Shown here piece by piece: positions 4,201-62,547 of a stretch of 64,000 nt of DNA. A program made the translations under genes and the position numbers. The notes below the pieces were generated by a model. The model made no database searches. It was not told where the DNA came from and saw only the letters and a program-made list of their open reading frames with translations. Source of the stretch: a virus (lineage: Duplodnaviria; Caudoviricetes); IMG/VR virus record IMGVR_UViG_3300028888_000001; one strand, 5' to 3'. Numbering within the stretch: the stretch's first letter is position 1; every line of letters starts with the position of its first letter.

Positions 4201-6340
4201 TTCAAATACTGGAAATAAATCTACCATAATTCATGGTAATATTGAAGAAGAAGCTGAGACTGGATATAAGCATATTAAAACTAATAAAGAAATCACAGAG
4301 GTAATTAAGAACGGCAATAGAGAAACTCATATTACTAAAGGTGATATTCTAGAAACAACAGATGATGGCGGTAGATCTTTTAGAGGTACTGGAAATATCA
4401 TCGAAGTTGGCACTGGTGGATATAAATACACAGAGTTAGGTAAGTCTATTGTTGAAATTGCTAGTAATAGAAGACGTGAAATTCTAGAAGATAGCGATAT
4501 TCAAAGCATGATAGACAATAATGCTAGAACATTTTACGGTACAGGTGATATCATAGAGAATGTCACTAATGGTGGTCGTGCATTCGTTGGTTCTGGCAAT
4601 ATCATTGAAGAAACATCTGGCGGCTATAGAGGATATAACATTGGTAAAAACTATTGTATATTCGCATCTGGTAGGAAACGTGAATTTACAGATGCAGAAG
4701 TGGATGCAATGATTGCCAGGAATGCTTATACTTTCTATGGTACTGGTGATATTATAGAAAATGTAAAGAGTGGTGGTAGAACTTTTAGTGGTACTGGTGA
4801 TATCTTATGGGAGACCACTGGTGGCGGTATTGGATATTCTGTTGCTAATAATATAGTAGAAGAATCGACCGCTGGGTATAAAATTACTAAAACAGCTAAG
4901 TCTATCACTGAAATTGCTAATGGACGCAATCCATCTGAGGCTGATCTTAATAATTATATTGCTGGTGGTGGTAGAACTTTCTTAGGCACTGGTAATATTA
5001 TTGAAGATACAACTAATGGTTATAAAGCTACTTCAGTTAGAGGTGATATAACAGAAACATCTTTAGGTGGTGGTAGAAGATTTACCGGTGTAACTGGCAT
5101 ATATGAAGAAGTTACTAATGGCGGTAGAGAATTCTATGGTACCGGTGATATTATAGAAAATACTACTAATGGTAATAAATCTGTATATGTCGGTAAAAAC
5201 TTCACTGAAGACGTTGTAGGTAATAAGACTCTTAATATCACTGGAAATGTTGCTGAAACTATTGGTGGATATAAAAATGTCCGCGTTGAAGGAGATATTT
5301 ATACATATAATAGATCTGGTAAATATGATCTAGATGTATATGGTAACATATATGAGCGCTCTAGAGTTGGCGCTAGAACAGTAGATGTTGCTGGAGCTAT
5401 AACTGAGACTTCTAGCGGTGGTGGTAGAAGTTTCAGTGGCGCTGGACCAATAAGTGAGATAACAACAAATGGTGGCCGCTACTTTGAAGGTACTGGTAAT
5501 ATTGTAGAAATTACCACTGGTGGTGGAAGATCGTTTAACGGCGCTGGTAATATTGTTGAAGTAACTAGCAACGGTGGTAGATCATTTAGTGGCACTGGTA
5601 ATATTACTGAAACTACAAGTGGCGGTGGAAAAACTACAGACGTTACCGGAAATATTATAGAAATCACTTCAGGTGGTGGCAGAACGTTTAACGGTGCTGG
5701 TAATATCGTTGAAATAACAACCAACGGTGGCAGACGTTTTGAAGGTACTGGTAATATCGTAGAAATCACTGGTGGTGGAAGATCATTTACTGGTGGTGGA
5801 GCTATCACTGAAACTACTACAAGTGGAGGTAGATCATTTACTGGTACTGGAGATATAAAAGAAATCACTTCTGGTGGTAGTAAATCTGTATATGTAAGAG
5901 ACGATATATCATTTACATCTACTAATGGAAAATATACTCTTGGCGTTAGAGGAGACATTGCTGTAGAAAGCACCACTGGACGATTTGGATTGGATGTATA
6001 CGGAGATATAGAAGAATCTAGCTCAAGGGGTGGTAAAACACTTACTATAGTAAATGATCTTAATGTATCCTCTAGTAATGGTGCACTAAATCTTGCCGTA
6101 ACTAATGGAATTAGTGCAACAACTAACACTGGAGCTGTATTAATTAGAGGCGTTTCTTCAGCAACTCTCCAGGCTAATAATGGTCCAGTACATCTTAGAG
6201 GTGCAGAAGAAATCGGATTATTTGGTCAAAGACTCGTATTACAAAACTCAAGATATATCTATGGAACAGCAGACCCTGATGAATTATCCACTTGGACTTC
6301 AATTCAAGAGGGCACTGTATACTTTAAGCTTTTAGATTGA
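1277..6340 (+). CDS. Very long tail fibre/spike with Gp5-like beta-helix repeats
   Basis: 1687 aa of ~17-aa repeats (VxG[DN]I.E.[ST]..GG[RK][ST]). Fibre-like N-terminus MAQLKDTYVHG and C-terminus YGT.DP...EGTVYFK. GGAGG RBS. Confidence 0.7.
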   Translation: MAQLKDTYVHGDMNVDGSLTITENKRNLALIEGDNFIIGDEELNTIIRGVNTTIDSSGDYDINADGQVNINSNNDGINLNADKDINLNAGENISQKAETGSYSIEADKQISAKSNSEGLDIEVEKDIDIKSNNGHLKTEVKDDITFDSSDGGYELNVKNDIKEKSSAGSKTTNVYGNITETTESGAKTSNIQGDITEISKNGGKTTTVKNNITETSESGGKSTTVKGNISETSESGGKSTTVEDDISEVSKAGGKITHVDDNIDITSDHGGYSVGVQNDINFTSSSGGWNQHVDDNISETSDSGSKTTTVNGAITEVSSTGGRSFTGAGDITEYTSNGGRSFSGTGDIVEVTTNGGRSFEGKGDITEITSDGHKLTKTGKSITEIADGRAITNEKLQEYINNGGRTFYGKGQITEDVTDGGRSFRGKEDITEYTSNGGRSFEGDKDISEISHNGGKSTSVKNNITQSSSSGYKYDNINKGIVEVADGVSVTEEDLEKYQASGRTFVGTGDITEISRGAKTTKIKNDITEETTEGGRFFSGAGDIEETTSGGHKHTNVKQEIEEISSDGYKYTQVDGSITEISGKRIVDLSEEDIKNIIENNGRTFYGDGDIVEDLKTGGRHFTGTEDITEKTTNGGRSFEGKGDIVESVTEGGRFFTGAGDIEERTSGGHKLGIYNKSVTEIADGVNLSDEELESYIDNGGRTFVGKGDLTEISSNGHKLVKTGKSITEIADGVTIEDQELQNYINNGGRTFVGKGDLTEISSNGSKLTRVKGDISEYSSDGSRYYEGKGDITEIGHTGSKYTELGGSITEIADGRIDGLTQEEVEALKAKGGRIFLGKGDIEEHSTQGHKLTILGKSITEIADGVSISDEQLEEYINNGGRTFIGNGNLTEVSIDGGKTTEVKNDIKETSSTGYKLTKTGKSITEVADGYNITDQELQEYINDGGRTFLGNGDITEVSANGNKLTEINKDITEISNTGNKSTIIHGNIEEEAETGYKHIKTNKEITEVIKNGNRETHITKGDILETTDDGGRSFRGTGNIIEVGTGGYKYTELGKSIVEIASNRRREILEDSDIQSMIDNNARTFYGTGDIIENVTNGGRAFVGSGNIIEETSGGYRGYNIGKNYCIFASGRKREFTDAEVDAMIARNAYTFYGTGDIIENVKSGGRTFSGTGDILWETTGGGIGYSVANNIVEESTAGYKITKTAKSITEIANGRNPSEADLNNYIAGGGRTFLGTGNIIEDTTNGYKATSVRGDITETSLGGGRRFTGVTGIYEEVTNGGREFYGTGDIIENTTNGNKSVYVGKNFTEDVVGNKTLNITGNVAETIGGYKNVRVEGDIYTYNRSGKYDLDVYGNIYERSRVGARTVDVAGAITETSSGGGRSFSGAGPISEITTNGGRYFEGTGNIVEITTGGGRSFNGAGNIVEVTSNGGRSFSGTGNITETTSGGGKTTDVTGNIIEITSGGGRTFNGAGNIVEITTNGGRRFEGTGNIVEITGGGRSFTGGGAITETTTSGGRSFTGTGDIKEITSGGSKSVYVRDDISFTSTNGKYTLGVRGDIAVESTTGRFGLDVYGDIEESSSRGGKTLTIVNDLNVSSSNGALNLAVTNGISATTNTGAVLIRGVSSATLQANNGPVHLRGAEEIGLFGQRLVLQNSRYIYGTADPDELSTWTSIQEGTVYFKLLD

Positions 6341-6362
6341 TATGTACATTATCTATAAATAT

Positions 6363-6390
6363 TTCAGGCAAGATTAATTTCTTGCCTGAA
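6363..6390 (+). terminator. Stem-loop (terminator or processing hairpin)
   Basis: ttcaggcaaga / tcttgcctgaa 11-bp inverted repeat. Confidence 0.6.
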
Positions 6391-6419
6391 AAATTTTGCT
6401 TTAAGGAGGTAATGTATTA

Positions 6420-9400
6420 ATGGCAAATAAATGGCAGCGAGAGCTAAAAAATGCTCTTATTATACATATCGTGCCAAATTTTAATGTATATGGAACCATA
6501 AACTTTGATACAAGAAAAATGAATATCTATATCAAAGTCACTTCTAATACAGATACTGAATATTCGCATGGCGTTTGGTATGACTACAACATGTTTATTC
6601 TATGGACTAAAAACGACTATGCCTGGCATGGTATGAGTCCTAGTGCTAAAGAAGAATTATTGCATATAATGCCTGCTGGCTACATGGGAGGAGAAGAAAT
6701 ATCTGTTTCTGGTGATGGTTTCACTTCAGGAAGCGGTTATAATCTTCAACATACTTGGCCTTCATCATTTGGTTCATATTCAGCAAGTGATAAATATTAT
6801 TTATGTATGCTATGTCAAGTTCACCCAGATGCTTATGCAAGAGGTGACACTACAGATAAATACTGTGATATAACAACAAGTGAAAATATTAAAGTTGGTT
6901 CTTATACTTATATAAATAATACTGGCTACTTAACAGGATCAAAAAATCCTGGTGGTTCAGCAGTCACAAAGAATGGAAAATGGGACGCTGATAGAATGTG
7001 GGTAAAACCAGGCTCATTTTCATGGATAAATAGTGGCAATGACGATGAATATTATTCAACAGCAAAATTTACAGCCGTTTCATTCCCAATCGCTCCAGAC
7101 ACTGATACTCGTAATGGCGGTAGACTGCTATTGGAAGCTCATGAGAGAAACGCTGCTTATACAAAACTAACAGCAACAGCAACTTACATTCCAGCTGCAA
7201 CCAAACCAGCTATAACATTCTTTGGAGTAGACGATCCAAATGATGCTGGTGTTAATACACGTTGTATAAAAATAGTATTATTCAAATATACAAACGATGC
7301 TCATACAACATGGGAAGTTATAGAAACTAGATACCCAATGGCAACAAAAGATGGAGATAATTTTGTTGCAGCATATAACTTTACTGTAGAAGACACTAGT
7401 GATTATTTTGTAGAGGCATTCATAATAGAAGATTTGGGTTCAGAACTTAATGACTTAGATGCTACAGATTTTTCTGACGGTAAGGAAGAAATTCAATACG
7501 TAGCTGGTAAAATTACAGTAAGTGCTACACGTACAGCTACTACAGTTACAGCTCGTGGTAAATATACTGTAGGAACTGCTACAGGAAAGCAAGGTGCAAC
7601 TAGATATTGGGGAACAAAAACTACAGGTGGTACAACTACTTCTAATAGAAGTAAAGTATTACTAGCATTACTTCGAGGTACAACAGAATTAGAAACTGCA
7701 GTTGTAGCTAATAATACAGACTTTACATTTAATACTGCTGTGGTTAGTGATGTAGAATATACTGTAAAAGCATATGCTGTAGAGCTACTAGATGTCAAAA
7801 AGACAGTAGGACCAGCATCTAAAACAGTTGCAGCTCTAGGATCTATAGGTTCAGTAACAGCTACTATTGTGAATAGAACGGATACTACAATTACTTTAAA
7901 AGCTACATATAGCGGTAGCACCCCATATTATGCAACCCTTAATATGACAGATAAGGGAAAATTATATTATTTCTTACGTTTATATAATGAATCAACTACA
8001 GCTGATTCTGATATAAATGAGCACGATAGACAATATGTAGACAAATACGGTACATACGTTCAACGTAAGAAAATAACAATGGGCGAAGAATGGGTAGTCA
8101 CTGGTATAGATAAATATACAGCTTATGCATTTACTGCGTATGCTTTTTATTTTCCAGATGGCCAATTGTCGTCAATGCAACGAGCGCATGATACTGTAGC
8201 CGATATGGGATCTGAATCTTCTGTTGATCCAACAGATATGAATGCTAAAATAACTGGCACTACTATTACATTAACGCCAGTATTTACATCTGCTGGAGAT
8301 AGAACAGTTGATAGCATAGAATGGACGGCTAAATTAGGTAGAGTTACTCAATCTGGCACGTCAACAAAAAATGCTAGTGGAGAATGGGAAAGCGATCCAG
8401 CTAAATTTGCATTATTAGCAAATGCTACAACGTATACTATTGTTTTTCATGGTCTATTTAGCGGAGCAGCTTCACCAACTCCAGATGCTGGTGATGGAGA
8501 AAGTGATGGTACATTAGATACATCTGCTGGATACATTGATCTTTTAAACTCTGATGTGTACTATGACGCTATGACATATGGTGTTACGGTTCTAGAAGCA
8601 TCAAAAACTAGAACTACGTTCACTGGCATAGCATATCAAACTATAGGAGCTCATGGTGAAACTAATCATGCTATGACAGAGTGCGGTAAGAAAAAATATG
8701 CTGGATTCTGCAGACGAAGAGATGGCTCTAGTGTAGCCTCTACAAATGTTGGCTATGTATCATTTAATAATGGTACAACTACAGTATCTACTGATGTTAT
8801 CGGTCAATCAGCAGGTTCAGCAAATTTCACGGGCTCTGAAGTTACAATAACTGGCTTATTACCTAGCACTGGTTATAGATTATATGTATATCTTAAAGGC
8901 TGTAAAGACTTTGAGGGTCAATACGATGCTGTTGGTTATATAGACTTCACGACAGAAGCAGTCGCTATCCCAGGATTGTTTCAAGCTAGAGTAACTGGAA
9001 CATCAATATCTGTTACGCCTAATATAATTAGATGGAATAACTCATCTGATTTATCTTGCATGATGTATTTTAATACAGTTGCTGGCGTTGATGAAAATGG
9101 TAAAGCAATACCTGGATCAATGGTAGAAATGGGCTATGTGACTATATCTCCAACTAATTTGATGAGGGGTATATGTTATGGTCTAGATACTGGAACTAAA
9201 TATCTTGTTACTTTCTATTGTACTGATGACGAAGATAATGAAATAGAAATAGAGCCAATTGAGGTTGTCACGTATGGACTAACTATAGAAACTGGAGTGC
9301 CTCATACTAGATATTGTTCTGATTGTAAGATAACGTATGTTGAGGGTGAAAGAATGTCTAATACTCCTCAAGATACCACCAGAGGCGCAGCGGTTAGATG

Positions 9401-10870: not shown

Positions 10871-11656
10871 ATGGATCAGTTATCCGTATCATGCAGTGCG
10901 GTACTACTTATTCTATTGGCTATAGTTTCTATTATAGGATTTTTATATATTAGATATAATAACAAACGTCTAAAAGAAGTTTTAAAAGCTCAAAGTGAAG
11001 ATGAACTAAAAGCCTTTAAAGCTTCAATAGAAGAAATGAATAAAAATCTTATGAATGCCATAGCTGAAACAATAAGTAGAAATAATCGTCAAAATACAAA
11101 TCCAGCTCAAACACATCAGCAAGAGCTATTATCTACATTTGATAAAATAAGACAGATAACAAGAGATGATCTATTTTCTACTCTTAATTCTACTTCAGCA
11201 TGTAGAATAGCATTATACTTATTACACAACGGTACTAAATCTATAAATGGTATAAGCTTTCTTAAAATATCTTGTATCGGTGAACGTACGTTAGCCGGTT
11301 CTGGTATACGGGAGCAAATTATTAATCATACTAATATGCCTATAAATATATTTGATAACATGCTTGAGAAATTAATAGAAAATGGCCGTTATCTTATAAT
11401 TAACGATGAGGAAACAATGCTTACTGCAAGATCACAGTTTATCTCTCATTCTAAAATACAATATTCTCAAGCTGTTGCAATTTATGATAATTCTAATAAT
11501 ATTATAGGATTCATTCTCGGTGAATACGATTCTATATACACTAAAGAAAATTCTGATATAGAGTATAAAGATCTTAAAATGTTAGCTCAAAAGATTTCAC
11601 CAATATTAACGATATCTGATTATAATAAGATAGCATCAAAAGAAAGAAAAATGTAA
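10871..11656 (+). CDS. Holin-like protein (single N-terminal TM, coiled coil, GAF-like domain)
   Basis: Hydrophobic stretch at aa ~8-27. The C-terminal RIALYLLHNG...FLKISC..E ... IYDNSNNIIGFI pattern is GAF-like. The architecture resembles T4 holin T. Confidence 0.5.
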   Translation: MDQLSVSCSAVLLILLAIVSIIGFLYIRYNNKRLKEVLKAQSEDELKAFKASIEEMNKNLMNAIAETISRNNRQNTNPAQTHQQELLSTFDKIRQITRDDLFSTLNSTSACRIALYLLHNGTKSINGISFLKISCIGERTLAGSGIREQIINHTNMPINIFDNMLEKLIENGRYLIINDEETMLTARSQFISHSKIQYSQAVAIYDNSNNIIGFILGEYDSIYTKENSDIEYKDLKMLAQKISPILTISDYNKIASKERKM

Positions 11657-11662
11657 ACTCAT

Positions 11663-11690
11663 AAACAGCGTGAGGAAACTCACGCTGTTT
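11663..11690 (+). terminator. Rho-independent terminator
   Basis: aaacagcgtgag-gaaa-ctcacgctgttt followed by T/A-rich sequence. Confidence 0.8.
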
Positions 11691-11716
11691 TATATATTGA
11701 TAATTATACATTGTTT

Positions 11717-11730
11717 GACATTTGAATAAT
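11717..11730 (+). promoter_or_regulatory. Putative late promoter GACA-N6-TAAT
   Basis: gaca tttgaa taat upstream of the 11759 ORF. Confidence 0.55.
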
Positions 11731-11758
11731 TATAACAATTATTCTGGAGGTTTATAAT

Positions 11759-12997
11759 ATGAGTAATATATACAAAATTACTAATCCAGAAACTGGAGAG
11801 TCTCAACTTGTAGTTTCTAAAGAATACGTAGATATCCGTCTTAATAGATTAGAAAATGCTATCATGCAGCATATTAAAGATTCTGATAAAGCTCATACGT
11901 TAGATGCTAAATTAAATACAGAATCTCCAGCTTTGCTTGATAAAGAGCAATATACGGATATTTATATACCAAAGAGCACTGATCCTATAAAAGCTCAGGA
12001 TATTAAAACAGATGCCGAGCATAAATTTATCTCTCAAACTCAGCTAGAAGTATTTAAAAATAAAGCTTCTATTTCTGAAGCTCAAGCATTGATTAATAAT
12101 TCTATTAATGAGATTAAATCTCAGTTCAACGCTATGTATATAAATCTGCTCAATAAGCCAGATGCAGTGAAAAAATTAAAAGATCTCATTTCTCTTATAG
12201 ATGAATCTGAAACTCTTGATCAGATTATGGCTTCATTTTCTACGAAAGTATCTAAAGAAGAATTAGATGAACACGCAACTAATTCTGTAGTTCATGTAAA
12301 CTCAGTAGATAGAAAAGCTTTAGATATTTTAATTGGACTTATTAAAGATGGCACTTTCGATAAGATTAAAGCCCAATCTTTAGATTTTGTTAAGGCTGCA
12401 GAAAATGCTATTAATCTAGATGGAATGACTTCTGATGAAGTACGCTCTAGAGGAAAATATGTAAAAATATATGGTGTTGATGGTTATGTAGATCCATTTC
12501 GTGTGGATGTACTTTTCCCAGGCCAGCAATATTTAGATAATGAAATAGCAAAACAGAATTTTATAAATACTTCTGGCAAAGTTCTATTTGCTGAATCTTT
12601 TTATAATATAGATACATTTTATCTTAATAGATCTAATAATATGAATGACTTAACTATTGAAGGTTGTGGCTCTGGTACTATAATAAATGTAAAATATCTT
12701 CAAGCAAACAATGTATTATTTAGAGATCTAACTATATCTGGAAATGACACTGAAAATTTAAGGTCTGCTATAATAAGCTCAAATGTTATTTTTGAGAACG
12801 TGACTTTCGATAAAGTAGATATAACTCTTTCCGCAAGTAAATATTGTAGATTTAAAAATTGCATATTTAAGAATTGTAGATTTACAATGACTGGAGTATG
12901 TATTGGAAATATTATAAAAGAATGTATATTTATCAAAACCTCAACTCCAAAATATATTGGTGGTAGCAATATCATATCTGATAACGTTATAGTATAA
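11759..12997 (+). CDS. Virion protein with C-terminal right-handed beta-helix (pectin-lyase-like)
   Basis: 412 aa. Fibre-like DIKTDAEHKFIS motif. C-terminal LTIEGCGSGT...NVLFRDLTI...CRFKNCIFKNC repeats. Confidence 0.5.
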   Translation: MSNIYKITNPETGESQLVVSKEYVDIRLNRLENAIMQHIKDSDKAHTLDAKLNTESPALLDKEQYTDIYIPKSTDPIKAQDIKTDAEHKFISQTQLEVFKNKASISEAQALINNSINEIKSQFNAMYINLLNKPDAVKKLKDLISLIDESETLDQIMASFSTKVSKEELDEHATNSVVHVNSVDRKALDILIGLIKDGTFDKIKAQSLDFVKAAENAINLDGMTSDEVRSRGKYVKIYGVDGYVDPFRVDVLFPGQQYLDNEIAKQNFINTSGKVLFAESFYNIDTFYLNRSNNMNDLTIEGCGSGTIINVKYLQANNVLFRDLTISGNDTENLRSAIISSNVIFENVTFDKVDITLSASKYCRFKNCIFKNCRFTMTGVCIGNIIKECIFIKTSTPKYIGGSNIISDNVIV

Positions 12998-13003
12998 TAT
13001 ATA

Positions 13004-13027
13004 CCCCGTGGGAGAAATCCCACGGGG
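13004..13027. terminator. Bidirectional terminator between convergent genes
   Basis: ccccgtggga-gaaa-tcccacgggg. Confidence 0.8.
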
Positions 13028-13034
13028 ATTATTT

Positions 13035-14423
13035 TTAATTTAAATGACCAATACGGCTAGACGTTCTAAAGTTGTCAGGATTATTCCATCCATCAGCAAA
13101 ATTATGATGTATACGTACATTATTCACATAGCCCATATCGATGTATACGCCAATAATAAATCCTGGAGTGGTACATTTTTCACTTATAGAAACTGTATAA
13201 GTGTCCCAATCAACGTCATAATCTTTATATGACGGATCATTGAAAATAATGAAGTCTATAAATAATGAAGGATTAAGAGCAACAGATTTTGTATACTCTA
13301 TTATAGCCATAAGCTCAGTATTTTCAAACAAAGGCCTAATATCTATATCTAAAGCTTTTCGCTTACCAAGATCTTTCATTTCTACAATGTAATCTGTTTT
13401 TATTACTCTAGACCATCCACTTTCATTAGCTTCAGGAATATCTGCTTTAGTGGCTTTAAATAGTACAATTGCAGTCTCATCTTGTACAGTATCACCAGCA
13501 ATTATTTCTTGAGGCTCTTGAGAATAATAAGTATAACAATATGGAGCTGTCATCTCTATCTCTACAGCAAAATCACAAATAAAAGCCATGTGTTCATGAT
13601 CTATCCTATCGCCACTCTCATCACCTGTTGGAAATTCTGATCTTATATGAACGGTACAATTTTCTATACGCATGAAATACTCAAAATTTCCAGTAGCGTT
13701 AACACGTTTATATAAAAATGGAACCATAGAATGAGAATTTAAATATCGTAACATTTCATCAGGATCTCTAGGCCCAGAAAAATCATCTGTTGCTATACCA
13801 TTATCAAATGCCATTTGAGCAATAATCTTTTTAGGTACATGAATATCAAGCGGTATATATTGTGTTTCAGTTAAACCAGCTCTATGCCTATATTTGATAT
13901 ATTCCATATCATCTAGCATCTGGCCTTTAGTGTCGTTTCTAATTCTATATGTGAAATTCATCATTATAGATTTAAACTGCACTGCAAGATATAGACATTT
14001 TTCTGGACGTTGGTCTCTAAATATAGTTCCCTCAAAACGAGATCTTCTTAAATATCCGCCAAGCTCAAGATTTGTATCTATAAAATTTCTGTTATAGTTC
14101 ATATCTATAGTTGGCACTATAGCCAACACAGGGTTGGTCCTTTTAAGCTGATCTTGAAGTTTTGAAAACATTCTGAACTGGTCAAAAGATTTAGATCCAT
14201 CTACATATATAGAATTAAATTTATCTCTAGGCCATTTATCTAGAAACCAGTCTCTAGCAAATTCTGTACACACAGCATAAGCGTTATACTGTGAAGGAAG
14301 CATAACACTTGATCTTAATATTCTTGGTTTCTTGGTATTATATATTTCATGAGGATCTAATATTCTCATACCTTGGGCTCTAGGATTTATTATTTTACCA
14401 AAGTCTTTAAGCGTTCCTTCCAT
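13035..14423 (-). CDS. Probable virion structural protein (possibly tail completion/terminator-like)
   Basis: 462-aa ORF with GGAGG RBS and a late-promoter motif at 14458-14471. The functional assignment is weak. Confidence 0.4.
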   Translation of the reverse strand: MEGTLKDFGKIINPRAQGMRILDPHEIYNTKKPRILRSSVMLPSQYNAYAVCTEFARDWFLDKWPRDKFNSIYVDGSKSFDQFRMFSKLQDQLKRTNPVLAIVPTIDMNYNRNFIDTNLELGGYLRRSRFEGTIFRDQRPEKCLYLAVQFKSIMMNFTYRIRNDTKGQMLDDMEYIKYRHRAGLTETQYIPLDIHVPKKIIAQMAFDNGIATDDFSGPRDPDEMLRYLNSHSMVPFLYKRVNATGNFEYFMRIENCTVHIRSEFPTGDESGDRIDHEHMAFICDFAVEIEMTAPYCYTYYSQEPQEIIAGDTVQDETAIVLFKATKADIPEANESGWSRVIKTDYIVEMKDLGKRKALDIDIRPLFENTELMAIIEYTKSVALNPSLFIDFIIFNDPSYKDYDVDWDTYTVSISEKCTTPGFIIGVYIDMGYVNNVRIHHNFADGWNNPDNFRTSSRIGHLN

Positions 14424-16223: not shown

Positions 16224-16625
16224 CGTACCCCTATACACTACGAAAGTAATGTAGATTGATTAGATCCTAGGTGGCTTAGACTATATCTAAATCCACTGCT
16301 TAATAAAAGCGTTGGGATAATTAGCGCTTCGATTTAAACGGACTTATTTGCTGCAATGCCGTACTATAGTAATCACTCTATAGCTCTACTCCCATTTAGG
16401 GATAGTCGTTGAACCTTCTATACTGTTACAGTATAGCTTGGCTGCTGATTGCATATTGTTAGCAGGCTTTAGCACCATTATTATACAATGGCTTTTATTT
16501 CAGCATGGCCCAATCTTTAACTTGTTTCTGTCTTTCGACTCCTTATAGGCATAAAGATATTAATACATCCCAGCAATTCACTAATTTTTAACGCTCCTAT
16601 TCCTAGAAACGTGATCCTGATTTTG
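16224..16625 (-). mobile_element. Group I intron (402 nt, no ORF) in the RNAP catalytic motif
   Basis: Minus strand carries P (gaattgctggga), Q (aatcagcagcc), R (gttcaacgacta) and S (agatatagtct) elements. P1 UGAUU/GAUCA has U.G at the splice site, and the intron ends in G. Removal restores AADFDGD. Confidence 0.92.
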
Positions 16626-55433: not shown

Positions 55434-56450
55434 ATGGATATGAATCAACAGGCTTATTATGGAAACCCCTATCAGCAGCAGCCGTTTGGATTTGGCGGTT
55501 ATTATTATGATCCGTCTAATCCATATTTAAATGGAGGTTTTCAGTCACAGCCAATGTATTTTAACAATCAGCAGATGCCTCAGATGAGCTCTTCTCTTAC
55601 GGATGAAGAGATCCAGAGGCTTAGACAAGAACGTCCTGGAAGCAACGTGCTCAATCTTAGCATTGATCCGAATACTGTGTTGAGGTCTATGTGCAATCAC
55701 CGCGATAAGGGACAGGATGTTGTTCAAATCAAATCAGACGGCTCCGGTGAAGTGTATTGCCCGATCTGTGGTAATTCCTGGAGCATGGAAGAGATGACCA
55801 AAGAAGAACTGCAAGAACTTGTACAGAAATTGATAGCTCAGATGCAGATTGCAAAATGGGCTGGAAATATTCCCAATAATGTATTAAGGGATTATTTCAC
55901 AATTATGCCGCTTCTAGAAAAATTCCCGGATCTCTGGGAGTATTCTATGAAGAACTTTAACAAGATGATGAGTGCGAACGGCATGTATTATGCTACAGAT
56001 GCTATGCCATATGCACAGTATAACGCCATGTTCCCGGGCGGATCAATGGCATACAATGTGACTGCAAATCCGTATCAGCAGGCTTATTATAATCAGCCCA
56101 TGCAGCAGCAGACGGTGCAGTTTAATACTCCTTATCAGCCCAATATGAATATGGGTCAGATGCCAGTAAATGGACAGGCAGCTAATCCGGCTGTAAATCC
56201 GATGCAGGCTCAGGGATTCAATCAACCATTCAATCCTCAGTTCGCAAATCAACAGAACATGATGATGTATAATCAGCAGATGATGCAGCCAAACATGTAT
56301 CAGCAGCCGTATATGAATCAACCCAATGCTGGCCAGACCTATCAGCCGAATTTTGGAGTAGCTCAGCCTCAGCAGCAGGCAGCGCAACAGCAGCCCACTC
56401 AGCAGCAACAGGCAGCTCCGGTAACGACTGAAACAAAGGTAGAGCTTTAA
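55434..56450 (+). CDS. Q/N/Y/M/P-rich low-complexity protein with a central Zn ribbon
   Basis: CNH...YCPICG flanked by prion-like N- and C-terminal tails. AAGGAGG RBS. Confidence 0.8.
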   Translation: MDMNQQAYYGNPYQQQPFGFGGYYYDPSNPYLNGGFQSQPMYFNNQQMPQMSSSLTDEEIQRLRQERPGSNVLNLSIDPNTVLRSMCNHRDKGQDVVQIKSDGSGEVYCPICGNSWSMEEMTKEELQELVQKLIAQMQIAKWAGNIPNNVLRDYFTIMPLLEKFPDLWEYSMKNFNKMMSANGMYYATDAMPYAQYNAMFPGGSMAYNVTANPYQQAYYNQPMQQQTVQFNTPYQPNMNMGQMPVNGQAANPAVNPMQAQGFNQPFNPQFANQQNMMMYNQQMMQPNMYQQPYMNQPNAGQTYQPNFGVAQPQQQAAQQQPTQQQQAAPVTTETKVEL

Positions 56451-56585: not shown

Positions 56586-57869
56586 ATGGCTAAAGATGAA
56601 AAAATAAATAAACAAGCAGAAATTAAAGTTATTCAAGATCCAGTAGAAGCTGTTAGAAAACTTCCGGATGTCTACTTGGGGTCCCTGGGTGGACCCGGAT
56701 TCCTTAACATGTACCGAGAAATTGTACAAAACTCATTGGATGAAATTGTCAAAGGCAATACTCTTGACAAAAACATTATCATTAGTTACGATGCTAGAAA
56801 TCATACTGTAATTGTAGAAGATAATGGTCAAGGTATAGATTTAAATATGCTTATACCAGTATTTTCTATATTACATTCTTCAAGCAATTATGACAAAAAA
56901 GAAGGTAGCGGTAACTACAGTAGCGGTAAAAACGGTATGGGTGCTACAATTACAAACTTCTTATCGAAGTTCTTTGTAGTCGAATCATATCGTATGGATG
57001 GCACTGCTGCTAAAGTAGAATTTGAAGAAGGTCGTATAAATTCCAAAGGTTTACAGAAAATAAAGAAACCACCAGTTGGAAAACACGGTCTTATAACTAG
57101 CTTTGCTCCATCTGAAATGATGGGAGATATTGATGTCACAGATATTCAGATAGAAGAACTTACTTGGAAACTGTGTCATTTGTCTTCTATAGGAACAAAA
57201 ATAACTCTAAATATGATTACTCCTACAGGAATGAAGAGAAAATCTATTATAGAGAATAAGCATGGTATCTTTGATATGCTTCCTGGAATATGCGAGAAGC
57301 CATTATTCGATCCTATTTATTACGCGATTGATAATGGCACTATGGCTGTAGAGTGTTTACTTACATACGATCTTAAGAATATGGATGACCCAGAAATTTT
57401 ATCATTTGCTAATATGTGCCCTACCATTTCAGGTACACATGTAGATGGTTTCTTAGACGGATTAATTAAATATTTTAGAGATTATATGAACAAAATCTAT
57501 CTAGCAAATAATAATAAACTTCAAGTCAATGCCCAAGATATACGTACAGGTCTTAGAGCTATAGTTAATATAAAACATCTGTATCCGCTGTTCACAGGTC
57601 AATCGAAAGGTATCTTCTCAAAGGAGGATATCAAACCTTTCATTAATGCTGAGACTACAGAAGCATTAAATGAATGGACTAAGAAAGCTCCTGGAGATTT
57701 ACAGAAAGTAAGCAAATATTTTAAAGATGTTTGTGAAATCAGGATGAAGCAAGATGGCCAAAAGATCAAAATGCAGGGTTCATATATTCAATCAGCTATA
57801 TCTGATTTACCTGCAAAATATAAGAAACCAAATGGTCATAAAGATATAGAGGTAATAATTTGCGAGGGT
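56586..57869 (+). CDS. gyrB: DNA gyrase/topoisomerase II subunit B, exon 1 (GHKL ATPase and transducer). Spliced product 770 aa from 5 exons.
   Basis: EAVRK.P..Y.G, EIVQNSLDE, VEDNG.GI, SGKNGMG, GTHVDGF, FTGQSK; ends IICEG. Confidence 0.93.
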
Positions 57870-59510
57870 TAAGCGATAGCCCATTCACTATAGTGATATA
57901 GTGTCTAAATCTTTTTGAATTGCTGGAAAAGGCTAAAGCTTTCATGCCTATTATATAGGAGATGAAAATCAGAAACAAGTTGAGAGATGGCTCATGGTGA
58001 AATAAAAGCTCGAAAGAGTCCTAAAAGCTATAAACAATGTCTAATCAGCAGCTAAGTAATTTTATATGCCATTATCTCTTTTAAAGAAATGGAGATAAGT
58101 ATGAATTTAAAGCATGATGTGCAAGTAGGCGATACTTTTAGTACTAATGCATATGGCGAAATTAAAATTTTAGAAGATCTTGGCTTTGAATCTTTTGAAG
58201 ATAGAAGGCATAGATACAAAATACAATTTTTAAAAACTAGCCATATCAGAATTGCTAGAAGGGATGCAATCATAGCCGGAGAGGTAAAAGATCTTGTACC
58301 AGATATTAATTTTGAATTAATTAGAGACTCTTATAAATGCGGAAAGTATCAAATCATAGAATACATGGGGTTAATAAATGCAAGGCAGTATGTAAAAATA
58401 GTATTTTTAGATTCCACTGCAGAATCTATAGTATTACTTTCTACAGCCGAATCAGGAAAAGTGCACGATCCCATGTTTGGGTTTAATCCAAACAAAATAT
58501 TTCAATCAAATAAATCAGGCCCATTTAAGATGATTGATTATTTGGGTAAGGTTAAAGGGCATGCATTTGTAACTATATTATTCTTGAACACAGGAACGAT
58601 TAGAGATGTACAAATGTATAACGCTCTAGATGGAAAAGTATCAGATCCAGCATTAAATAGAAAAATTAGTGACGATTTTTCTATTGACAGATTTGATAAT
58701 TATGAACTTTACTTAAATAAGAAACTTAAAAGCGTACATGATAAAATGATTAAAAGATGTTATAATACTAATATCCCAGAATATCAGTATTATGGCTTGC
58801 TTTGAATTAAAGTATGTGATAGATGGTTAGAGAGTTTTGACAACTTTTTAGAAGATGCAAAACGACTACCTGGTTATGATAAATACTATAATAGACCCTA
58901 TTTATATGAACTTGATAAGGATTACTTGCAATTTAATATTCCTAAAAAGTTAAGAGTTTATTCTCCTACGACTTGTATGTTTTTATATAAACAGGATAAT
59001 ATTAACTTAAAGAGTATTGAATATAAGAGAGAACATAATCCAGGAGCATTATTTGGAGTTTCTATTAATTCAGCTGGAAATTATCAAGCTAGTATAGTAG
59101 TACAAGGAAACTATGTATATCTTGGAGTCTATGATAATATCATAGCAGCTGCAAATATGTTTAATATGGCATTTGATTGGTATCACGACTATGAATTAGT
59201 CGCTTTACATAACGATGTTCCAGTCATGGATTTAAATGAAATAAATAGCCATAGAATAAATGCCAAATAATTATATCATATTACAGAAAAGAATAATGGC
59301 ATATAAAATTAAAAGTTCAACGACTATCCCCTATATGGGACGTGAAATTCGTCTACAGGAGTACGGCTCAAGCGAGTGGGTGAGAATCCCTTAAATGGAA
59401 GTTGAAAGACACCCTAGAAATAGGGTGATGATATAGTCTAAACTTCTAGAGAAATACTAGAGAAGTTCATAAGAGAACTGCAGAGCGTAGCGAACTCTGT
59501 GAATAAACTG
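57870..59510 (+). mobile_element. Group I intron 1 of gyrB (1641 nt) carrying a disrupted HNH-AP2 endonuclease
   Basis: P1 GGGU|UA...UAGCCC, gaattgctgg, aatcagcagc, gttcaacgacta, gatatagtc, terminal G. Splicing joins EG|DSA. Confidence 0.92.
58101..59270 (+). pseudogene. Intron-encoded HNH-type homing endonuclease with C-terminal AP2 domain, interrupted by an in-frame TGA at 58803-58805
   Basis: MIKRCYN..YYGLL*IKVCDRW..FDNF..ELDKD..YSPTTC continues in the same frame into FGVS...YQASI...YLG.Y...AA (AP2-like). Confidence 0.8.
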
Positions 59511-59744
59511 GATTCAGCCGCAGCAGGATTCGAAAATAATAGAGATAAAATGCATCAGGGCATTATGCCCCTCAGAGGTAAAATTCTTAATGCAATTATG
59601 ACACCGCCAAAGAAATTCTTTGAGAATGAAGAGATTAGCGGTCTATTCTCTATATTTGGATATAAAAATTTCTCAAGCAAATTTGATCCAGAAAAGTTCA
59701 AACCATCTAAAATCATCATAGCAACGGACGCTGATGCAGACGGT
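59511..59744 (+). CDS. gyrB: gyrB exon 2 (DSAAAG...PLRGKILN...IIIATDADADG)
   Basis: Toprim motifs; 234 nt, phase 0. Confidence 0.93.
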
Positions 59745-60968
59745 TACCTGAGAGTTACAGTAGCCGCATCATTGTGGTGACACAGTGTTGAATAATTCTT
59801 TCTAATTGCTGGGAAGTGCTAAAGCCTTCTTGCCTATAGGGAGCTGAAAAGCAGAAATAAGTAGAAGGATGATCTATGGTGAAATAAAAGCTAATATACT
59901 TTACTGAACTTTTGTATATTGGTCCTAAGGATCGTTAACAATGTACAATCAGCAGCTAAGTAAAATTTTATAATATTTATTTCATGAGGAGTATAATACA
60001 TGCCAACTAATTGGGTAGGCTATACATTCATGAATATAGAAAATCAACCAGTTACAGTAATAGAAGATTTAGGCTATTCAAGTGCTTCTGGAGAGCATAA
60101 AGTTATAGTCAGATTTGATATTACTGGAAATACTAAAGAAGTATTTGTAAACAACGTAAGAACTGGCAAAGTTAAAGATCCAATGCGCGGTATTAGGCTA
60201 TTTGAATGGCGCCATAGCAATGGATTTGGAGATTTCATGATCATTGAAGATATGGGGATGATACAACAGAATAATCGTCCGATACATATGGTTAAATGCC
60301 AATGGAAGGATACTGGTTCTGTGTCTATATATCGATTTGATCATGCAGTAGAAGGAAGCATTAAAGATTGGTATAAACCGATACTATTTGGCATAGCTTA
60401 TCATGGAGAAGTGGATTGTTTTGAAGAGCCGTGGGCTTATCAAGAATGGAAACATATGCTTCAACGATGCTATGATAAAAATGATACTCATTATTCATCA
60501 TATGGTGGTAAGAACGTTTATGTTGATAATAGATGGTTAAACTATGCTAATTTTGTGAAAGATATAAAGTATTTAGAAAATTATGATAAGAAATTAGCAT
60601 TTCCATCTGAGTTTGAAATTGACAAAGATTTCTTGCAACGTCATGTTCCAGATAATGTACCTAAGGTTTATTCTCCAGAAACTTGTATGTTTATACACAG
60701 AAGTTTAAATAACTATCTTAGGTATAATAGCTCGTCGACACCAATCGATAGACAATATTTAGTACCAATGATTAATTTAGTATAAAAAATAAATATTATA
60801 AAATTTTAAAAGTTCAACGACTATCTCAAAAGAGAGTAGAGCTCAAGCGAGCTCAAAATGGAGAACGCTCCTATAATATAGGGCGGTGATATAGTCTCGG
60901 CTTCTAGGCAACACCTAGAGAAGTTCATAAGAGAACTGCATAGCGTAGCGAACTATGTGAAGGCATCG
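59745..60968 (+). mobile_element. Group I intron 2 of gyrB (1224 nt) with intact endonuclease ORF
   Basis: P1 CGGU|UAC...GUAGCCG, conserved P/Q/R/S elements, terminal G. Splicing joins DADG|KHI. Confidence 0.92.
60000..60785 (+). CDS. Intron-encoded HNH-type homing endonuclease
   Basis: WKHMLQRCY..YGG..V.V..RW..Y.NF..EIDKD..YSPETC..N. GAGGAG RBS. Confidence 0.8.
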   Translation: MPTNWVGYTFMNIENQPVTVIEDLGYSSASGEHKVIVRFDITGNTKEVFVNNVRTGKVKDPMRGIRLFEWRHSNGFGDFMIIEDMGMIQQNNRPIHMVKCQWKDTGSVSIYRFDHAVEGSIKDWYKPILFGIAYHGEVDCFEEPWAYQEWKHMLQRCYDKNDTHYSSYGGKNVYVDNRWLNYANFVKDIKYLENYDKKLAFPSEFEIDKDFLQRHVPDNVPKVYSPETCMFIHRSLNNYLRYNSSSTPIDRQYLVPMINLV

Positions 60969-61034
60969 AAGCACATTCAAAGTCTGTTGCTAATCATGTT
61001 TTTAAAATATCTACCGTTCGTCGTAGAGCAAGGT
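60969..61034 (+). CDS. gyrB: gyrB exon 3, 66-nt micro-exon KHIQSLLLIMFLKYLPFVVEQG
   Basis: Matches the GyrB segment xHI.xLLL.FF.xY...L.E.G. Not in the ORF track. Confidence 0.9.
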
Positions 61035-61400
61035 TAATTAAAATAGCCTATTCATTATGGTAACATAGTGTCTATTACTCTTTTTAATTGCTGGGAAACG
61101 CTAAGAGCCTCTATGCCTATAAGGAGCGAAAGCAGAAACAAGTTAGAGGATGATCTATGCTGAAATAAAAGCCAATTTAATTGGTGCTAAGGATCGTTAA
61201 CAATGTATAATCAGCATCCAAGCTATACATTAGTATAGAAGGTTCAACGACTATCTCAAAAGAGAGTAGGGCTCAAGCGAGTTCAAAATGGAAGAGCATC
61301 CTATGTAGTATAGGATGAAGATATAGTCTCGACTTCTAGGTAGCACCTAGAGAAGTTCATAAGAGAACTGCATAGCATAGCGAACTATGTGAAGATTTCG
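61035..61400 (+). mobile_element. Group I intron 3 of gyrB (366 nt, no ORF)
   Basis: P1 AGGU|UA...UAGCCU, conserved P/Q/R/S elements, terminal G. Splicing joins EQG|KLFIANPPLY. Confidence 0.92.
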
Positions 61401-61955
61401 AAATTATTTATTGCTAATCCGCCCTTATATGGGCTTAAAATTGGTAAGGATAAATATAAATTCTTTGCCGATAATATAGACTATGTAGATTATGTGAGAA
61501 ATATTTTCTGTAAAGATAATGTCATAGCAAATGATAAGAAAAAAGTATTAAGCAAATCTGAGATTGTAAAAATACTATATAGCAATATTGATTATCTTAA
61601 ATACATGCGTCACGTTTCTGGTATATTTGCTATAGACATAGAATTTCTAGAGTTTTTGCTATACAATAAAGATCTTGCATATAATAAATTTAAAACGACC
61701 GTAGAGAAAGTATATCCATTCGTTAAGGTTACTAAAGAGAATGGCATTACTATGCTTCATGGGTTGGTTGGATCTTTATATCAAACAGTTTTCTTTAACG
61801 ATAGATTGCTGTTTGAGTGTAAACCTATTATAGACTTGATTGAAAGATCTTGTAAATATTATTACATAAACGGAAAACGAACTACATTATATGGCTTAAT
61901 GAACGCATTTAATCAATGTGAGCCTTCAGGAATTAGTAGATATAAAGGACTGGGT
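61401..61955 (+). CDS. gyrB: gyrB exon 4 (KLFIANPPLY...SRYKGLG)
   Basis: PPLY and RYKGLG motifs; 555 nt, phase 0. Confidence 0.92.
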
Positions 61956-62373
61956 AAATTTTGCCCATTCATCGTGGTAACACGGTGTCTAAATCTCTTT
62001 TGAATTGCTGGGAAGTGCTAAAGCTCTCATGCCTATAAGGAATCGAAAGATAGAAACAAGTTGAGAGATAGTCTATGGTGAAATAAAAGCTAATACTTTA
62101 GGCAGAAGTATTAGTCCTAAGGATTGCTAGCAATGTACAATCAGCATCCAAGCTATACATTAGTATAGAAGGTTCAACGACTATCCCCTATATGGTGCGT
62201 GAAAATCGTATACAGGAGTACGGCTCAAGCGAGTGGGTGAGAATCCCTTAAATGGAAGTGGAAGAGCAACCTTTACTATCAAAAGGTTGATGATATAGTC
62301 TCGACTTCTAGGTGACACTTAGAGAAGTTCATAAGAGAACTACATAGCGTAGCGAACTATGTGAAGATAATCG
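61956..62373 (+). mobile_element. Group I intron 4 of gyrB (418 nt, no ORF)
   Basis: P1 UGGGU|AA...UUGCCCA, conserved P/Q/R/S elements, terminal G. Splicing joins YKGLG|EM. Confidence 0.92.
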
Positions 62374-62547
62374 GAAATGCCGCCTAAGTTATTAGGAGAA
62401 TCTACTATATTACCTGGGATTGGAAGGACGCTAAAGCAATATAATATAGAAGACGTAAAGAAAGAACTTAAATATATTACATCTCTTCAATCTGATAAAG
62501 GTGCTTTTATCCAAGGTATAAAAGTTAGAAGAGAAGACATAGTATAA
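62374..62547 (+). CDS. gyrB: gyrB exon 5 (EMPPKLLGESTILPGIGRTLKQY...REDIV*)
   Basis: Completes KGLGEM and the ST...RTL C-terminal motif. Not in the ORF track. Confidence 0.9.
   Translation, partial: EMPPKLLGESTILPGIGRTLKQYNIEDVKKELKYITSLQSDKGAFIQGIKVRREDIV

Follow-up and report, generated by a model that had tools for sequence, protein, structure and literature searches.

In phage T4, the td, nrdB and nrdD genes are each interrupted by one group IA2 intron, which lies in a conserved motif of DNA metabolism, has the additional hairpins P7.1 and P7.2 and carries in a peripheral loop an open reading frame (ORF) for an endonuclease of the GIY-YIG or HNH type; variants with a decayed ORF, or with none, occur in relatives. 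Three group I introns share a single gene, orf142, in Staphylococcus phage Twort. For type II topoisomerase genes, a preprint by Korn et al. describes introns in gyrB of Staphylococcus jumbo phages, two introns in AR9 gyrA and a gyrA intein in the Machias group; a literature search on group I introns in gyrB, gyrase and topoisomerase genes returned no direct report. Gut 'Jug' jumbo phages are reported to carry 18.5 group I introns per genome on average, which split essential genes, terL and nrdD among them, and metatranscriptome reads confirmed splicing for 37 of 76 predicted introns (Sci Adv 2026, PMC12880540). Here we describe the gyrB gene of an uncultured jumbo phage that is represented by a 313,331-bp metagenomic record of IMG/VR (IMGVR_UViG_3300028888_000001, hereafter G000) with direct terminal repeats. 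The stretch analysed, a window of 64,000 nt to whose positions we refer unless stated otherwise, is taken from the minus strand of this record. We propose, with a probability of about 0.9, that four paralogous group I introns are excised from one ~6-kb gyrB precursor to yield the mRNA for a type IIA topoisomerase B subunit of 770 amino acids (aa).

As an intron host gyrB is not new, and the present locus shows a known phenomenon with an unusual density of introns. As in Machias, an AR9-related jumbo phage of the Firmicutes type, gyrB is interrupted and an insertion falls within the DxDxDG motif of the Toprim domain. In contrast to the five exons found here, the gyrB coding sequence (CDS) of Machias is joined from two pieces in its record, and its site (DAD|xDG) lies 2–3 codons upstream of our site 2, a comparison that holds for the position in the motif and not for exact boundaries, as the tblastn alignment of our spliced protein runs through the small Machias intron. 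The introns of the present phage are full-size (366–418 nt, or 1.2–1.6 kb where they contain ORFs). Their architecture resembles that of the T4 introns, with ORFs in a peripheral loop (P6) and hairpins between P7 and P3' that may correspond to P7.1 and P7.2. Unlike in T4, four sibling introns sit in one gene, and their ORFs match PHROGs 2081, 374 and 953 and begin with tandem SH3-like barrels. Twort orf142 and AR9 gyrA likewise hold several group I introns within one gene, but the introns here number four, are clearly paralogous and all occupy GGU sites. The 'Jug' phages resemble this phage in being huge and in having many group I introns (here in at least nine places), but they form a different clade; in the available portion of that paper, gyrB/ParE is not among their split genes and topoisomerase IV is a single-copy core gene, and terL is broken up into two or three pieces against five gyrB exons here (PMC12880540). 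The initial annotation of this DNA had regarded four introns in a topoisomerase B gene as unusual. Four per gene does exceed the compared accounts for any one phage gene; the claim to rarity has to be softened by the published phage gyrB introns and by a relative, L016, which equals this number at partly different sites.

All five exons lie on the plus strand of the window. Exon 1 (56586–57869, 428 aa), whose ATG is preceded by a GGAGG ribosome-binding site 10 nt upstream, encodes the GHKL ATPase domain and the transducer domain, with matches to Pfam HATPase_c and DNA_gyraseB (6e-23) and to NCBIfam GyrB (8e-45), and stops at the catalytic Glu-Gly of the Toprim domain (ICEG|). Exon 2 (59511–59744, 78 aa) continues Toprim from DSA to DADADG (Pfam Toprim, 5.6e-5), and exon 3 (60969–61034) adds 22 aa, KHIQSLLLIMFLKYLPFVVEQG, of which 19 are identical in the relative L013 by manual count. 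The PPLY motif and the insertion domain, as far as RYKGLG, come from exon 4 (61401–61955, 185 aa), which matches profile positions 531–626 of the NCBIfam long-form GyrB (E 3e-4). Exon 5 (62374–62547, 57 aa and a TAA stop) supplies the C-terminal GyrB tail (EMPPKLLGEST...), a region spanned by Pfam DNA_gyraseB_C in orthologues. Exons 2, 3 and 5 align with orthologues without gaps.

When joined, the exons amount to 2313 nt with every junction in phase 0 and encode 770 aa followed by a stop, which reproduces the initial annotation; the junctions also read as it had claimed, EG|DSA, DADG|KHI, EQG|KLF and KGLG|EM. The motifs EGDSA, DADADGKH, GKLFIANPPLY and RYKGLGEM are restored exactly over the four joins, and the features of a type IIA topoisomerase B subunit (GHKL ATPase, transducer, Toprim with EGDSA and DxDxDG, and a tail with PPLY and YKGLGEM) are all present. 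The predicted spliced product is a GyrB/ParE-like topoisomerase, and the name gyrB is used by homology only. An ORF listing gives GyrB-like pieces at 56586–57872, 59499–59780, 61389–62003 and 62377–62547, with unrelated ORFs in between. Two exons had been thought invisible to ORF calling; this holds for the 66-nt exon 3, whereas the 174-nt exon 5 appears as a 56-aa ORF at a cut-off of 40 aa. An essential gene is thus called as disconnected fragments with its 22-aa exon missed entirely, and because gene callers disconnect and miss such pieces, the topoisomerase content of jumbo phages is under-called.

Searching IMG/VR with exon 1 yielded 11 loci (L001–L011) on jumbo-phage contigs of 44–259 kb. 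The spliced protein is colinear with nine of them by tblastn (L001–L003 and L006–L011), in a single high-scoring segment pair over residues 3–770 at 40–65% identity, and gyrB of the other two (L004 and L005) is interrupted at KGLG|EM only. Six uninterrupted orthologues from related jumbo-phage contigs, which carry the full Pfam set of HATPase_c, DNA_gyraseB, Toprim and DNA_gyraseB_C, were aligned by MAFFT with the spliced protein, the comparison by which the initial annotation had proposed to judge its exons; there were zero gaps at all four junctions. Two closer relatives, L013 and L016, were found as contigs with orthologues of the intron 2 ORF and have ~80% GyrB protein identity. Between our spliced CDS and that of L013, the proportions of nonsynonymous (pN) and synonymous (pS) differences are 0.12 and 0.72, with a ratio of substitution rates (dN/dS) of ~0.06 at saturated dS. 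As pN is far under pS, the joined frame is under strong purifying selection and the gene is functional in intron-bearing lineages. One uninterrupted orthologue (L009, 4863–7238) has EGKSA where the catalytic Toprim motif is normally EGDSA.

Judged from their sequences, the four intervening stretches, all on the plus strand, are related group I introns, and we infer that they splice. Intron 1 (57870–59510, 1641 nt, at EG|DSA) and intron 2 (59745–60968, 1224 nt, at DADADG|KHI) each contain an ORF that sits in the loop of P6 and splits the core; a perfect stem, of 19 bp and 22 bp, respectively, closes this loop. Intron 3 (61035–61400, 366 nt, at EQG|KLF), which starts with a TAA stop, and intron 4 (61956–62373, 418 nt, at KGLG|EM) are ORF-less. 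Their total of 3649 nt agrees with the initial count, and the P1 helix with a U.G pair, the P/Q/R/S core and the terminal G that had been ascribed to each intron were seen in all four. The introns are paralogues, being 71–82% identical in the 5' domain and 75–88% in the 3' domain, and the core segments AAUUGCUGG, AAUCAGCA, GUUCAACGACUA and GAUAUAGUCU are found in every one of them. P4, P7 and the GAUAUAGUCU segment agree with the consensus of the Rfam family RF00028. An Infernal search (cmscan), suggested earlier as a check, recognised the introns with this model: introns 3 and 4 passed the gathering score of 50 bits, with 52.4 and 55.1 bits, respectively, and intron 1 reached 37.2 bits (E 5e-7) in its 3' part. 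An intein, that is, protein splicing, was ruled out, as the frame that continues past any of the 5' splice sites runs into a stop after 0–15 codons and is followed by the RNA core.

The helices also vary as paired elements. Among eight members of the family, P2, P3, P5c, P8, P9 and P9.2 stay paired with 2–4 pair types per position, and P4 and P7 are invariant and hence uninformative for covariation. As RNAalifold is unable to represent the P3/P7 pseudoknot and paired P7 wrongly, the helices were defined by hand; the definitions of P5a, P5b and P9.1 were left unused. Between P7 and the 3' strand of P3 there are two hairpins whose pairing is conserved; they are candidates for the P7.1 and P7.2 helices of subgroup IA2, to which the introns may belong.

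All four upstream exons end in GGT and all four introns end in G (..CTG in intron 1 and ..TCG in introns 2–4). The guide sequences match the exons to form an exon part of P1 of 4–5 bp, as in seven further relatives; the pairs are GGGU/GCCC for intron 1, CGGU/GCCG for intron 2, AGGU/GCCU for intron 3 and UGGGU/GCCCA for intron 4. The guide base that faces exon position −4 or −5 tracks the exon over seven sites, the other pairs including GUGGU/GCCGC and CAGGU/GCCUG. P10 is convincing, at 5 bp, for introns 3 and 4, and in intron 4 (GAAAU/AUUUU) it adjoins the guide sequence.

Four sites so alike raise the question of whether splicing always joins neighbouring exons. Cross-splicing might, besides full splicing, produce in-frame isoforms that skip exons, or the efficiency of splicing might time or limit topoisomerase synthesis. 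The four junctions are all in phase 0 after GGU, the guides differ at the fourth or fifth base only, the 3' domains from P9 to P9.2 are 75–88% identical, and two introns have a weak P10, the helix that aids the choice of the 3' site. The loss of any exon, however, would take away Toprim or tail motifs that are essential, nothing indicates that skipped products are selected for, and relatives thrive with zero to two introns, so that a regulatory role is not conserved; we consider both cross-splicing and such a role for the introns improbable.

Several points weigh against the proposal of a fully spliced gyrB. Intron 2 obtained just 16.3 bits (E ~1) with RF00028 and intron 1 stayed under the gathering score, although the ORF insertions account for both, because the P6-loop ORFs (~1.2 kb and ~0.8 kb) split the core and the model cannot span both halves. 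Introns 1 and 2 have a weak P10, of 3 bp. The thermodynamic folding of intron 3 gave no clear advantage over shuffled sequence (z = −1.94), a result that is uninformative when taken alone. Finally, the intron ORFs have neither the canonical H-N-H residues nor a match to a Pfam nuclease domain, which leaves endonuclease activity uncertain.

The ORF of intron 1 (58089–59270, plus strand; likely start ATG at 58101) matches three PHROGs (2081, 953 and 99), each bearing the name 'HNH endonuclease', and is of the same family as the intron 2 ORF. It contains an in-frame TGA at 58803–58805 (YYGLL*IKVCDRW), which divides it into 238 and 154 codons. The L016 orthologue (6147–7307, 386 aa) is intact and has Gly at this position (YYGAMGISVCDRW). 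Because of this Gly, and because other long ORFs of the window, including gyrB, are open under table 11, we read the TGA as a probable GGA-to-TGA nonsense change under that table. The remainder of the ORF is undamaged, which suggests that the inactivation is recent or that the stop is read through. An AP2-like C-terminus seen by eye in this ORF was dropped, as Pfam gave no confirmation.

The ORF of intron 2 (60000–60785, plus strand) is intact at 261 aa and matches PHROG 2081 at 1.9e-33 and also PHROGs 374 and 953, again all named 'HNH endonuclease'; its orthologues have 261–265 aa and 66–71% identity. Its C-terminal domain has the invariant residues D208, K209, D210 and N237. An AlphaFold model (predicted local distance difference test score of 88) places two SH3/Tudor-like barrels before the C-terminal domain, which has a strand-strand-helix at 205–242. 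The barrels, which matched known structures with Z scores of 5–6.7, are presumably DNA-binding modules. PacI, a beta-beta-alpha-Me enzyme, gave a weak match (Z 4.8) to residues 137–261, with a root-mean-square deviation of 4.3 over 96 residues, and this is the sole structural hint for the C-terminal domain. Sequence searches of the intron ORFs against Pfam, NCBIfam and PDB had no match, and Foldseek against PDB returned nothing at E ≤ 0.001 for the endonuclease-like ORF. With an invariant D-K-D...N in place of H-N-H, nuclease activity is plausible but unproven. Tandem barrels open both kinds of intron ORF, with two in that of intron 2 (residues 1–122, 60000–60400) and three, by sequence repeats, in that of site 1; a similar N-terminal barrel (Z 5.0) is present in Hpy99I, a beta-beta-alpha-Me restriction enzyme. 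In L004 and L005, the intron at site 4 is homologous to intron 4 and keeps a 46-codon ORF remnant. Taken together, the intact, broken, remnant and absent ORFs resemble phases of the familiar cycle in which an endonuclease invades, decays and is lost.

A broken ORF could also be a sign that the whole gene is decaying, with at least one intron no longer splicing, no full-length GyrB being made and the phage leaning on the gyrase of its host. The nonsense codon shows decay within the elements themselves, and the weak P10 of introns 1 and 2 would suit a loss of splicing. Against this, the five exons are without stops or frameshifts and keep every catalytic motif, the low pN relative to pS was measured against another intron-bearing phage, and the core helices and guide sequences are all intact and covarying. 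Decay of gyrB is therefore a most unlikely explanation in our view, and we retain a spliced, functional gene.

Relatives differ in the gyrB sites that they have occupied, as a survey of site occupancy proposed earlier has now revealed. The present phage has introns at sites 1 (EG|DSA), 2 (DADG|KHI), 3 (EQG|KLF) and 4 (KGLG|EM); L013, a 314-kb contig, at sites A (KNG|MGA) and 2; L016 at sites A' (SSG|KNG), B (TG|QSK), 1 and 2; and L004 and L005 at site 4, with no gyrB intron in the remaining IMG/VR loci. Site 1 of L016 holds an intron orthologous to intron 1, and Rfam confirms the small introns at A, A' and B. These data bear on whether misassembly or chimeric joining created the interruptions, which might be feared of an uncultured viral genome taken from a metagenomic contig. 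Independent samples (ENA, JGI and NCBI) have homologous introns at sites 1, 2 and 4, the intron 2 ORF is present on a second contig of 313,345 bp besides the 313,331-bp record, and the frame is restored to the nucleotide four times, unlike the outcome of misassembly. An artefact is accordingly a negligible prospect, and the interruptions can be treated as real introns.

The clade has seven distinct gyrB sites, spread over three related phages, each right after a GGT glycine codon and in phase 0, and every guide begins with GCC. As just 29 of 771 codons are GGT, this placement is not due to chance. Four of the seven sites hold ORF-less introns only. Introns 2 and 3, which are 66 nt apart, are 82% identical in the 5' half and 88% in the 3' half, against 60–71% for intron 2 and its orthologues at the same site, which indicates local duplication or gene conversion.

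We propose the following course of events. gyrB would be transcribed as a single precursor, in which guanosine attacks behind the exon-terminal U that is held in P1 by the GCC-N guide; the released exon would then attack behind the terminal G of the intron. The ligated mRNA would be translated into the B subunit, with the downstream GyrA-like subunit as its partner. The introns themselves would be selfish mobile elements of one family that has spread through the genome. Introns 1 and 2 may be mobile by homing now, or may have been so recently, the intron 1 ORF now being prematurely stopped. Introns 3 and 4 probably came from sibling copies and may have been kept or dispersed passively, as by co-conversion with their neighbours or by reverse splicing. 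A bolder and rather doubtful possibility is that RNA-guided reverse splicing, and not endonuclease homing, brings the family to new sites, or that P1 pairing at least constrains where it can go. It is suggested by the seven GGT phase-0 sites, by GCC guides whose next base is matched to the site, by the ORF-less introns at four of seven sites and by the close similarity of neighbouring paralogues. If so, ectopic transposition of group I introns in a virus would have left a natural record in this clade.

The GGT-only rule over seven sites is in our opinion the most interesting lead from this locus, as it leaves room for spread by reverse splicing or under P1 constraint. Together with four siblings and graded ORF states, these sites constitute a compact natural series on site colonisation (by homing, co-conversion or reverse splicing) and on endonuclease decay. 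In addition, EGDSA, DxDxDG, PPLY, YKGLGEM and the ATP-lid region of type IIA topoisomerases emerge as recurrent landing sites for selfish elements.

The likely partner gene lies ~1.4 kb downstream of gyrB, just beyond the window end: an uninterrupted GyrA-like frame of 785 aa (G000:168229–169551; PF00521, 1.5e-81). As in the Machias group, a gyrA intein is present in L016, where gyrA (11161–14061, 966 aa) has a Pfam Intein_splicing match within DNA_topoisoIV; in the present phage, gyrA runs uninterrupted. Directly upstream of gyrB, a plus-strand ORF of 338 aa (55434–56450) has low-complexity ends rich in Q, N, M and P and a central CPICGN motif; Pfam and PHROG searches gave it no match.

Beyond gyrB, the intron family recurs in the genome. 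RF00028 matches seven places genome-wide, and BLAST found sibling copies at G000:C1 79998–80328 (minus strand), 113644–114034, 114508–114901 and 216961–217159 (all plus strand; the last at window 16382–16578), with more copies at 301627–301912 and 303436–303498. Group I introns are therefore present in at least nine places, including the four in gyrB. The copy at about G000:C1 113630 lies in a terminase gene, where, by eye, PRQ|QGKT is restored seemingly only with a 5' exon ending in C and an intron ending in ..ATAACG; the 5' splice site of this intron would then seem to be non-canonical. When the region was compared with GenBank phages by megablast, the sole match was an intron segment of 87 nt in Listeria phage LPJP1. 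This segment (L018 2501–2587; MZ422438 159059–159145) is 86% identical to the 3' domain of the intron family and sits in an unannotated gap with an rpoB fragment on one side and a small 'hypothetical protein' on the other. It probably represents an intron that was overlooked when an RNA polymerase gene of this cultured phage was annotated. gyrB of LPJP1 is uninterrupted.

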